DNA of 42,574 nucleotides from a virus (taxonomy: Duplodnaviria > Heunggongvirae > Uroviricota > Caudoviricetes): IMG/VR virus record IMGVR_UViG_2675903468_000002, positions 1 through 42,574 of that record, one strand, 5' to 3'. How positions within the stretch are numbered: position 1 is the first letter of the stretch; every line of letters starts with the position of its first letter. The translations under genes were made by a program, and so were the position numbers. The notes below the pieces were generated by a model that had not been told where the DNA came from, made no database searches, and saw nothing but the letters and a program-made list of their open reading frames with translations. Positions 19,558 through 23,510 of the stretch are shown here, in pieces.

Positions 19558-21477
19558 TTATCCTCCACTCAGAGCAGCCGCGATTTCTTCAATAGTCATT
19601 TCATCGTCGTCCTGTTCATCTCTTCTGGCGCGGGCCAGTGCATCCAGATCCAGTTGCCACCGCTGAACGGAAATGCGCAGCGCTGCATAGGCATACACCA
19701 GACAGTCCAGAGCTTCATTACGCCGTTTTCTGGCATCCCACTGGAGTTTCACCCGCCCGTTCACAACTTTTTCAACCAGCTCTTCTGCCACGAGTTGTTT
19801 AGCTTCAACATCAGAAAAAATGTCCGGGTTATCCGGAAAACGGAAGGTATACGGTGCGACTTCACTGGCAGATACCACCGGCAGGGCAAAACGCGCATAC
19901 AGCATTTCCTTGACGGTATCGGAACCCACCTCACACAAAAACACCCCACGCTGGTTTCGCTTTTTTGGCATGGTGATCACCGGCTTGCCGTACACCGACG
20001 CCCCTTTGATGGGGAGCACAAAAAAAGTGCCGTGTTTTCTGGATCGCTGATACACAATGTCCTGGTCAATACCACCGGTATCCCAGCAGACGCGGGAAAT
20101 GGAAATTTCAGTGCCATCTGCATGACGGTATTTTTTCCGGATCACGGCATCAACGCGTTTAAGGGTGTCCTCATCTTCCGGTCTCCCCATGATGATCTGC
20201 TTGTCAATCAGAAAAGCTTCTTCGCCAGGAGCCCAGCCCCAGACATAAATCTCATAACGGTTTTTCTGAGAGTCGATCCCTGCGGTCAGGTAAACCACCC
20301 GCAGGGGAACCTGCGCATCATAGTGGCAGACTTTTTCCAGCAATAACTCAAAGCTCAGTTTTTCTGCCACAGCCTCTTCATAAGGCTCCCCCAGCGTGGT
20401 GTTAATGAACGTCTTGACGCCATTCGGATCCTTCAGTGCATCAAGCCAGTCATAAACAATCTGTACCCAGGTGGTGAACGGGCTGTATGCCGTCCAGATG
20501 TGGTACGAGATTGAGCGCGGTGGCGGGATTTCCTCATCACCGGCGCTGTAAAATGTCAGACCGTCACGCGTCCACATCCCGGTATTGTCACAAATCCACC
20601 GCCCGTCGGTCTGGTCAAGTTCCGACTGACGGATCGCGCAGCCATTATGTTCACACAGGTAATACACCGTCTCCGGCTTGCCCTTCTCCCATTTCAGGCC
20701 AAAGGTTGTCGCATCATCGCCAAACTTCAGATACTGGGCTTCACCACAATGAGGGCATGGCACATAAAACCGCATAAAATGTGCAGATTCGTTCGCGGCT
20801 TTTTCAATCTGGCAAAAACCTTTAATTTTGGGCGTTGAGCCGCGTATGGATTTAGGCCATACCGAACCTTCGATACGCTTATCGCCAAGCAGAGTTGGTG
20901 AACCTTCTTTTTCCACATCCGGTTCAAACGAGGAGAGTTCGTCATAGCAGACCACATCCACAGATTTTTCACGGTAGTTTTTGGCAGCAGCTCCGCCCAG
21001 ACACCAGAATCCCACACCGGAGGAGAAACGTTTCAGGGTAAGCGTGTTGTCCCGATGTTTTCTGCCAAACCACGGAGCCAGCTCCAGTAATACAGGAACG
21101 TCTCTTATCGTTGGTTCGACATGGGATTTCATAAAATCTTCTGCCGCAGAATCTGTCGGCTGAAAAAGCAGGCTGTTACGGGATTTGTGTTCAATAAAAT
21201 AAGCCTCCACCCCCAACAGCATTTTGGTGTAACCAACACGCGCCGATTTAATCAGATTAACGGTGCGGATCCGGTCATTCCCCATGCTGTTCATGATGGC
21301 AACCTGAAACGGCAGTGTTTCCCATTGCCCGGGAGTATATGAAGACTCTTTTGGCAGATAATAATGCTGATCAGCCCACTGAACTGTCGTCAGTGGTACC
21401 GGAATATTGAGAGATACAAGCCCTGTTGCTATCGCACCGGCTGCATTAGCTGCCTTCTGTGCGTCTGAAATCATCAA
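19558..21477 (-). CDS. A: Terminase large subunit A
   Basis: 639 aa; [39 protein letters not shown] and the rest match lambda gpA along the whole length. Confidence 0.95.
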
Positions 21478-21994
21478 TCCACCCGCCTACGTTCTCACCA
21501 GCTTTAGCTGCAACGTTGGAGGCTTTTGCGATTTCAGTTTTCACCACATCAAGGTGTGACGGTGAAATATCCGGATATTTACGCTGTAATGTCAGCGGCA
21601 CACGTACAAGTATCCCCGAAATCTCCTGTGCCACACGTTGCAGAATGAAGGTAAACAATTCCGTTTCCAGTACCAGCCCTTCTTCGCGGGCATTTTTCAG
21701 TTCCTGTGCATCAGCCTGTGCTTTTGTGAGTCGGTAGCGCTCATAGTCAATGGTGCCGGGTTGTAAATCTGATTCCGCAGCCGCACGCAAATCCTCGGTC
21801 TCTTTGCGGAGTTTTTCGTTTTCAATATCGGCTTCGCGCTGCGCATACCACTGAATTGCCATGGCGGTATCAAATACAGATTCAACCCCCTTACTACCAC
21901 CAGAGACACAAGAGAGCCCCTGAGACTGCCAGCGTTCAATCGTTCGTGGATCCACGTTGAAAATTTCCGCGAGCTTCTTTTTATTAACCTTCAT
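21446..21994 (-). CDS. Nu1: Terminase small subunit Nu1
   Basis: Start [26 protein letters not shown]; strongly similar to lambda Nu1 MEVNKKQLADIFGASIRTIQNWQEQG, including the ADIENEKLR and [27 protein letters not shown] blocks. Confidence 0.9.
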
Positions 21995-22017
21995 AAAACA
22001 TTTCCATATCAAATGCA

Positions 22018-22200
22018 GGGTCCGACATGGAAGTGCTCAAAAACGTCTTTTTCGGGCACTTTCATGTCGGACCTTTTACGGATGTGATTGATGAAAAAAC
22101 AATGAGTTATACACGAGAAGTACCGACACGCTTTTTCCCGAAAAATTTTCATAAATAGCGAAAATCCGCGCCGCTGCCGCCCCGTGGCAGGCCACCCCAC
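22018..22200 (-). other. cos site (cosN plus cosB-like region) of lambda type
   Basis: Minus strand reads CTGCCACG-GGGCGGCAGCGG-CGCGGATTTTCGCTATTTATGAAAATTTTTCGG, versus recalled lambda TTACG-GGGCGGCGACCT-CGCGGGTTTTCGCTATTTATGAAAATTTTCCGG; an 18-bp inverted repeat lies at 22018-22073. Confidence 0.65.
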
Positions 22201-22859
22201 CGGAAGGACCCGCACAAATGAGAGCGTTTATCATTAACATTTACAGATAAGATGACGTACATCATTGAAACGCCATTCAGCCATATACCGGCAGCATTCG
22301 TAGTTGCACTCCGTAACTCTGCGACTAAGGTTAAAAACATGGCCCTCTTTTGCCACCGGCAAATCTTCAATGGATTTCCCCTGCCGGTTTTTTATTTTCG
22401 TCGATGCATAACATTGCATTTACATCAATAGCGGCTATTGTCATTAGTATGTTGCATCAATGCATGGGTGGTATTGGCGGTCTTCGCCGGCCGGTTCTGT
22501 GTAGCTGCTCCCTGTGACCGGTTTTTTATTTCTCACATTACAGCAGCCCCTTAGAGTGAAGGGCTGCTGTAATGCCTGTTACTCACGAATCAAACGAGCA
22601 TGCTGACCACTCATTTCAATGCGTAAGTATTGTGGCTTGCCGTCAATCAACGCGGTGGTTAACTTGTCACCTGTAGGTTTCCACATAATTTTCTCCTGTT
22701 TTAATGCCCCTTGCCGCCAGGCAGTTGATCAAAGTTCATCTTGATTCGGCAAGATTTAGAATGAATAAGATAAAATTGGCACACGCAGCAGAATTTCATG
22801 CTTTCCGGACGCCGGCGCATCCTTCATTTTTCAGCAAAATATTCTGCCATTTCAGTCGT

Positions 22860-23042
22860 TCAGTTATGCATACACTGTCGGACACCATTGACAATTTCAC
22901 AGACCTGAGAGGCAGCATCCAAAAGCTGACGCGCCCTATCCAGGCTGACGCATCCCGACAATAAAAAAGGCACCAGTATCGCTACCAGTGCCCATTTCGC
23001 CGCCGTTCGCGGCATTCTGTGTGTCCAGTGTTTTCGCGTCAT
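22860..23042 (-). CDS. Small putative lipoprotein (function unknown; possible lysis-associated or cargo gene)
   Basis: Candidate start MTRKHW (or MPRTAAK at 23015); classic lipoprotein signal KWALVAILVPFLLSGC followed by a ~29-aa mature part with two Cys; weak RBS. Confidence 0.4.
   Translation of the reverse strand: MTRKHWTHRMPRTAAKWALVAILVPFLLSGCVSLDRARQLLDAASQVCEIVNGVRQCMHN
22960..22992 (-). terminator. Terminator-like hairpin embedded in the lipoprotein signal-peptide coding region
   Basis: Minus strand GGCACUGGUA-GCGA-UACUGGUGCC (10-bp stem with two G-U pairs, GNRA-type loop) followed by UUUUUUAUUG. Confidence 0.45.
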
Positions 23043-23180
23043 ATCACCACTCACGATTTCAGAGCAACAATCAACTTTGCCATCCCATACAGCATCGGAG
23101 ACACGGCGATGCCAACCGCCACCCACTTAATGGCAAAAGCCACCGCCCGGATAAGGCAGAGATTCGCCGGATTTTCTGTC

Positions 23181-23333
23181 TTATCTACAAACATATGCTA
23201 TCGCTGCAACCGCGAAACCAATTGCCCCGATCATTGCCGATAATGCAAGAATAATTCCGGCAATATTTGCTGCTTTAGGTGTCATACTGCCCCCTATACT
23301 CAGAAAGGTTTTATTGTTATCCTTTACTTGCAT
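23181..23333 (-). CDS. Small single-pass membrane protein (~50 aa), function unknown
   Basis: MQVKDNNKTFLSIGGSMTPKAANIAGIILALSAMIGAIGFAVAAIAYVCR; GGAGA RBS 6 nt upstream; below the ORF-track length cutoff. Confidence 0.4.
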   Translation of the reverse strand: MQVKDNNKTFLSIGGSMTPKAANIAGIILALSAMIGAIGFAVAAIAYVCR

Positions 23334-23379
23334 GAATTATCTCCATGTCTGATATGCGTTTCTGATTTTGCCAAAATAC

Positions 23380-23418
23380 AACCCCGGACTGTTCCAGCAG
23401 CCGGGGTTTTGTTTTTTG
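23380..23418. terminator. Hairpin with flanking T-runs between the endolysin and the small membrane gene
   Basis: AACCCCGG-13 nt-CCGGGGTT followed by TTGTTTTTTG on plus strand; minus-strand reading gives a weaker GUAUUUUGG tract. Confidence 0.45.
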
Positions 23419-23510
23419 CCACCTGGCACTATTGCCCGAGCCTGCACCCATCGTAGCCCCAGAAAAGAGCCTGCATGAGTTGAGGGTGTTCAGCACTTCA
23501 GTGTCAGTTT

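Follow-up and report, generated by a model that had tools for sequence, protein, structure and literature searches.

Does the segment just upstream of the terminase genes in the window (the whole 42,574-nt stretch of viral DNA analysed here) still serve as a cos site, and what would follow from cohesive-end bases that depart from those of phage lambda? The initial annotation had placed a lambda-type cos at 22018-22200 and had reported a non-canonical sequence at the cohesive-end position. Both the membership of the lambda family and the deviation were borne out, as cosQ, cosN and cosB are all present and the 12 nucleotides in question read GGGCGGCAGCGG rather than lambda GGGCGGCGACCT; the lambda reference used for that comparison is correct (NC_001416 begins GGGCGGCGACCTCGCGGGTTTTCGCTATTTATGAAAATTTT). 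However, cosB is of the phage 21 type, and the site lies on the minus strand and extends beyond the proposed interval to cosQ at 22211-22205. We consider it very probable that a lambda-like prophage, apparently intact and with the packaging specificity of phage 21, uses this locus as its functional cos.

A complete lambda-family cos is found on the minus strand just 5' of the terminase genes (cosQ 22211-22205, cosN 22184-22169, cosB 22133-22017). The minus-strand sequence between 22211 and 21994 contains ...GGGTCCTTCCGGTGGGGTGGCCTGCCACG, GGGCGGCAGCGG and CGCGGATTTTCGCTATTTATGAAAATTTTT... in direct succession; read 5' to 3' from 22215 downwards it is ...GCGGGTCCTTCCGGTGGGGTGGCCTGCCACG GGGCGGCAGCGG CGCGGATTTTCGCTATTTATGAAAATTTTTCGGGAAAAAGCGTGTCGGTACTTCTCG..., running on to the ATG of terS at 21994. 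The subsites were projected from the phage 21 records OL657228 and M81255, with virion position p corresponding to window position 22183 - p up to position 104; R2 and R1 are each displaced by one virion position, owing to 1 nt inserted relative to phage 21 immediately ahead of R2. A MAFFT alignment to the lambda, 21 and cdtI junctions revealed no indel from cosN through R3 relative to phage 21. In the same alignment the packaging-termination subsite cosQ (GGGTCCT, 22205-22211, minus strand) matches the 7-mer annotated as cosQ in phage 21 (OL657228), and its end lies, by counting, 22 nt from the predicted top-strand nick, compared with 23 nt in lambda and 21.

The 16 bp of cosN (22169-22184, minus strand), assigned by aligning them with the left-end sequences of lambda, 21 and cdtI, consist of GGGCGGCAGCGG with a CG on either side. 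The predicted 12-nt 5' overhang would thus be GGGCGGCAGCGG, at 22182-22171. On the top strand (minus strand of the window) the nick would fall between 22183 and 22182, and on the other strand between 22171 and 22170. That the nicks lie at the same positions as in lambda, as the initial annotation assumed, is most likely, given the CG on both sides of the 12-mer, the intact GGGCGG and a cosN-R3 spacing equal to that of phage 21. The overhang differs from the canonical end shared by lambda, 21 and phi80 (GGGCGGCGACCT) at positions 8, 9, 11 and 12, i.e., at 4 of 12 positions and not at 5 as had been counted, and all four differences reside in the cosB-proximal right half of cosN. The rotational symmetry of cosN amounts to 10/16 bp, the same total as in lambda, with the pair G2:C11 lost and C4:G9 gained. 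The site is a right-half variant of the natural kind: changes are confined to bp 7-12, while the left half GGGCGG and the CG at both nick flanks are kept and cosQ is found upstream at its 22-nt spacing.

Comparison with named phages places the predicted ends at the same bases. In a blastn search of 50,697 phage records, the sequence from base 1 of the 12-mer rightwards aligns, from base 1 of the 21 genome onwards, with the left end of that phage (82% identity, E = 4e-73), and the left flank corresponds to the right end of phage cdtI, with the alignment stopping at the final base of the cdtI record. The records of both phages start at the base aligned to the predicted overhang start, and that of cdtI ends at the aligned ...CCACG. 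These data bear on the idea that the site is functional but that the shorter (by 1 bp) cosQ-cosN spacing or the altered symmetry displaces the nicks, so that the overhang has another length or register. A spacing of 22 nt instead of 23 nt is seen in all left flanks of the type found here (type B, described below), the symmetric pairs differ from those of lambda even if their total is still 10/16, and the predicted nick positions are only inferred. Nevertheless, the distance from cosN to R3, by which the cosB-proximal nick is positioned in lambda, equals that of phage 21, the CG/G and G/CG steps at both nicks are conserved, and the record of cdtI, a phage that shares this left flank, has its first and last bases precisely at the homologous positions. 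We therefore regard displaced nicks as very unlikely.

The preferred reading, a functional cos with phage 21 specificity, draws on the structure of cosB and on the neighbouring genes (all features on the minus strand). The conserved spacer between cosN and R3, TTTTCGCTATTTATGAAAATTTT, harbours an I2-equivalent, a putative IHF site (22139-22153) projected from I2 of phage 21 (M81255). It is followed by R3 (AAGCGTGTCGGTACTT, 22118-22133, virion positions 50-65), a predicted TerS binding site identical to phage 21 R3 at 15 of 16 nucleotides and at all contact bases (positions 55-63). Between R3 and R2 lies I1 (22097-22111), a predicted site of IHF binding and bending projected from the phage 21 annotations, where, by direct reading, AAACAATGAGTTA on the opposite strand fits 8 of the 9 specified positions of WATCAANNNNTTR. 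R2 (AAGGTCCGACATGAAA, 22060-22075), inverted with respect to R3 and R1, is identical to the annotated phage 21 R2, and R1 (core CATGTCGGACC, 22017-22032) keeps the core CATGTCGG when aligned with the R1 annotated in phage 21. The 18-bp inverted repeat that the initial annotation had pointed out in the cosB-like region does exist, as the core (one mismatch) of two 25-nt arms that are 88% complementary (22019-22043 and 22049-22073), but it is no additional curiosity, as it represents the R2/R1 pair of TerS binding sites annotated in phage 21. A further inverted match pairs R2 with R3.

This cosB, with its R boxes and IHF site, directly precedes terS and terL of the Nu1/gpA type. TerS (182 aa, 21446-21994, minus strand) is of the phage 21 gp1 type (94% identity to 21 gp1 over 182 aa; phrog_57, E = 2e-65), and its residues 17-24, the recognition helix as defined for lambda TerS (PMC9026076), are identical to those of 21 gp1. 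TerL (638 aa, 19558-21474, minus strand) is a homologue of gpA carrying the cosN-nicking nuclease (65% identity to lambda gpA over 625 aa; phrog_15, E = 0), and genes 1-2 share approximately 81% nucleotide identity with phage 21. Since the recognition helix, R3 positions 55-63 and R2 are all identical to those of 21, the predicted packaging specificity is that of phage 21. In lambda-like phages the determinants of this specificity are the R sites within cosB and the recognition helix of TerS (PMC4669245); hence, the earlier suggestion that the altered overhang bears on packaging compatibility is not supported, and, given the 21-type R boxes and TerS helix, cross-packaging by lambda terminase is not expected whatever the overhang (PMC4669245).

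The prophage itself looks intact. TerL, a gpW homologue, portal, protease/scaffold, decoration protein, major capsid protein, tape measure and J are all encoded at full length and match PHROG families strongly, and the annotation of a 98.6%-identical prophage from a bovine E. coli strain shows a complete head-tail module, from which we conclude that the cos site is presumably in use. A cos of the PICI type was ruled out, as R boxes are present and terS, terL and a full morphogenesis module follow directly. On the other side of cos, the approximately 1.3 kb that separate it from the endolysin gene (22215-23510; endolysin 24077-23511, minus strand) contain only short ORFs, among them one of 88 aa (23126-22860, minus strand) with a lipobox-like LLSGC motif, which could encode a Bor- or spanin-like lipoprotein. 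At 22536-22575 a GC-rich hairpin (TTACAGCAGCCC...GGGCTGCTGTAA) is followed by an A/T-rich run on the minus strand; phages cdtI and phiSTEC1575-Stx2k have this hairpin conserved at the corresponding location, flanked by the lysis genes and cos, and it is probably a late-operon terminator or a related structure. A tRNA scan of the window found none.

The overhang allele recurs outside the window. A 40-mer spanning the variant is matched perfectly (100% identity) in 20 of 5,426 complete E. coli genomes, most of them of bovine origin, and the same right half (CAGCGG) is present in 17 IMG/VR contigs that comprise 9 distinct cos sequences, all with a 21-type cosB; the recurrent allele adjoins intact terminase genes. 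Two chromosomes, NZ_CP027255 (EC11) and NZ_CP043825 (RM8082), each carry two separate exact copies of the 40-mer, which implies two co-resident prophages with the same non-canonical end. The allele is neither a sequence error nor a product of decay. We find it very unlikely that cosN of a defective prophage has decayed here, with the four substitutions as lesions that prevent nicking or shift it to a wrong place. It is true that prophages are often defective and that the allele is found in no isolated phage (the 40-mer occurs in 0 of 50,697 GenBank phage records) and in none of the GTDB species-representative genomes, where a scan with the allele and its flanks gave 0 hits. Yet the same 12-mer recurs amid the diverged flanks of those 17 contigs and in 20 complete E. 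coli genomes, and the changes affect only positions 7-12, sparing the flanking CG and the left half that is critical for nicking. The genes for TerS, TerL and the head-tail proteins are also of full length. Moreover, right-half changes in lambda, including C11G, are phenotypically silent (PMC4669245).

A functional site with a naturally variable right half also agrees with how cosN varies across the family. IMG/VR was scanned with patterns anchored on the conserved right flank, and right halves were scored as overhang positions 7-12. The canonical CGACCT accounted for 110-112 of the first 120 sites listed, and positions 7-12 were non-canonical in 10 of these 120 (approximately 8%). A pattern that placed no constraint on the cohesive-end bases listed these 120 loci again together with one G6A site; invariance of positions 1-6 and of the upstream ACG thus holds for 120 of the 121 sites listed. 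The commonest non-canonical right half was AAGGCG (68 contigs), ahead of the window allele CAGCGG; GAGCGT, the right half of phage cdtI, and CAGGCG were each found 3 times, and four right halves were singletons of one contig each. The G6A site (GGGCGACGACCT, IMG/VR locus L216) represents the sole left-half change among the 121 sites listed. The overhang with AAGGCG, GGGCGGAAGGCG, departs from that of lambda at positions 7, 8, 9, 10 and 12 (5 of 12) and occurs both with a lambda-type cosB (e.g., L028, L029 and L095) and with a 21-type cosB (e.g., L007, L049 and L101); it is also paired with TerL essentially identical to that of lambda-type prophages with canonical ends.

The survey provides independent confirmation, from a larger sample, of a functional asymmetry of cosN, whose right half is free to vary whereas its left half is fixed. 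In lambda, mutations of cosN bp 7-12 have a minimal phenotype, and C11G has none, whereas the symmetric G2C costs approximately tenfold; the Feiss laboratory attributes this asymmetry to the anchoring of TerL by cosB-bound TerS (PMC4669245). As the most likely mechanism we propose packaging of the ordinary 21 type: TerS dimers would bind the three R boxes of cosB (R3, R2 and R1) and IHF would bend the DNA at I1, whereupon the anchored TerL would introduce nicks 12 bp apart in cosN at the conserved CG/G and G/CG steps. Virion DNA would then carry the 5' overhang GGGCGGCAGCGG and its complement, and the upstream cosQ would serve termination at the next cos. Right-half nicking would be governed by TerS anchoring and not by base reading, so that the right half may drift or recombine freely.

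The nuclease shows no covariation with the overhang allele. CAGCGG (13, including the window), AAGGCG (2) and GAGCGT (1) all have, beside them, a TerL with at least 99.2% identity to the one in the window, and no substitution among these proteins follows the allele, so that several overhang alleles are served by near-identical TerL proteins. Similarly, lambda-type TerL proteins with an identical 502-517 segment accompany both CGACCT (33) and AAGGCG (34). Covariation of TerL with the overhang was considered and rejected, as the residues matching suppressors of lambda cosN G2C (504, 509 and 515) follow the TerL lineage, not the allele. Across the pooled IMG/VR sample, three elements combine in mosaic fashion to make up cos: the left-flank type, the overhang allele and the cosB type. 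Left flanks are of type A (...TACG, cosQ + 23 nt) or type B (...CCACG, cosQ + 22 nt), and cosB is of the lambda type, the 21 type or one of two others; the window combines type B (minus strand, 22183-22211), CAGCGG and a 21-type cosB. Type B (GGGTCCT and 22 nt ending in CCACG) is also present in phage cdtI and at IMG/VR loci such as L015, L079, L114 and L007. Among the matches listed, it was associated with CGACCT in 0 of 110 canonical sites, and all 41 type-B sites (41/41) were non-canonical. Given that the pooled sample was partly enriched for sites in which position 8 is not G and holds many related isolates, we provisionally treat this association as linkage.

The same pattern could be read as the outcome of selection, either on the allele itself or on groups of alleles. 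According to the first version, the allele is a compatibility or isolation tag that would make chimeric chromosomes less viable when they arise with lambdoid prophages resident in the same cell and carrying other alleles. Several multi-substitution alleles do coexist with few intermediates, type B is never joined to the canonical end among the matches listed, and a mismatch of only 2 nt already has an approximately fourfold viability cost (PMC4669245). Neutral drift and linkage in a functionally tolerant half-site predict the same pattern, however; besides, the alleles are shuffled across cosB and TerL types, and chromosomes are cut from one-genome concatemers, so mixed ends should be rare. 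We consider a selected tag extremely improbable. According to the second version, to which we give hardly more than a slight chance, the end alleles together with the two flank types (cosQ at 22 or 23 nt) form annealing-incompatibility groups of co-resident lambdoid prophages, kept by selection against chimeras; if this were true, the lack of the canonical end in type B would reflect a functional coupling of the cosQ-side sequence and the overhang, beyond linkage.

Returning to a functional, tolerantly varying cosN, several named systems come close to it. Phage 21 shares the order of subsites (cosQ-cosN-I2-R3-I1-R2-R1, followed by gp1/gp2), the cosN-to-R3 spacing, the whole of R2, nearly all of R3 (15/16 nt), and a TerS that is 94% identical overall with an identical recognition helix, but it has the end GGGCGGCGACCT instead of GGGCGGCAGCGG and, like lambda, a flank ...TTACG with cosQ 23 nt from the nick instead of ...CCACG at 22 nt. 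Phages cdtI (AB285204) and phi458, in turn, have an identical right-end flank including cosQ (GGGTCCTTCCGGTGGGGTGGCCTGCCACG), but their end is GGGCGGGAGCGT, beyond which comes unrelated sequence that leads into a different terminase. Lambda shares the cosQ 7-mer, the left half of cosN, the flanking CG, the block in the cosN-R3 spacer and a gpA-like TerL (65%), and differs in 4 of 12 overhang bases, while the R boxes and the TerS helix of the window are 21-type. The overhang of the Salmonella phage Gifsy-1 (GGGCGGCAGCGT) is one base away from the window allele; Gifsy-1 shares the substitutions at 8, 9 and 11 relative to lambda but has T at position 12 (G here), another cosB, the right flank CGCAGGATTTCAC and a lambda-type left flank. 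N15 (GGGCGGCGTCCG, confirmed from sequence) and phiD326 are likewise right-half-only variants with G at position 12, as in the window, but carry just two changes from lambda (9 and 12); N15 moreover has a simple cosB and a distinct packaging specificity. The window allele hence equals that of Gifsy-1 plus the T12G seen in N15.

Right-half variation of cosN is already published (N15, phiD326, Gifsy-1 and mEp213; Feiss laboratory, 2015 and 2017). For N15 and phiD326 the described differences from lambda are at positions 9 and 12, for Gifsy-1 they are at 8, 9 and 11, and cosQ and the flanking CG dinucleotides are conserved across the natural variants (PMC4669245), and mEp213 and LLS have the cohesive end GGGCGGCGCGCT (PMC12315714). 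For phage Ayreon, cos packaging was only predicted in the corresponding paper, without end data. At most the specific allele is new, as it is absent from the phage records and the literature searched. That literature search, with GGGCGGCAGCGG and its complement, GGGCGGAAGGCG and GGGCGGGAGCGT, matched no phage paper, its scope being the literature apart from Vahanian et al. 2017 (Virology 509:140), which is reportedly a dedicated cosN survey and is cited in PMC9026076 and PMC12315714.

Since both chromosome ends derive from the same duplex sequence, any allele is self-compatible, and the sole expected effect of the variant should be a poorer annealing and sealing of chromosomes whose ends come from two alleles. 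Such mixed ends could arise, for example, from recombinant concatemers, from heterologous prophages in tandem or via helper packaging. Cyclisation remains possible with ends mismatched at 2 nt, at the viability cost given above (PMC4669245). Opposite a lambda-type end, the window overhang would present 4 mismatches within the last 5 positions, including the base at the nick, and annealing and ligation should be impaired more than in the 2-nt case of N15 and lambda. By nearest-neighbour estimates, the duplex of GGGCGGCAGCGG is marginally more stable than that of lambda (-19.2 vs -18.2 kcal/mol), and the 7-mer shared with lambda would give approximately -10.2 kcal/mol.

The finding leaves the understanding of packaging unchanged, and the variant overhang is a real but ordinary feature. 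Its practical weight lies in the predicted genome ends, which would be GGGCGGCAGCGG and not those of lambda, in a lineage found mostly in bovine E. coli. This matters for the correct opening of assemblies and for end-based detection tools, and methods that rely on lambda oligonucleotides or on cos ligation would fail on such DNA.
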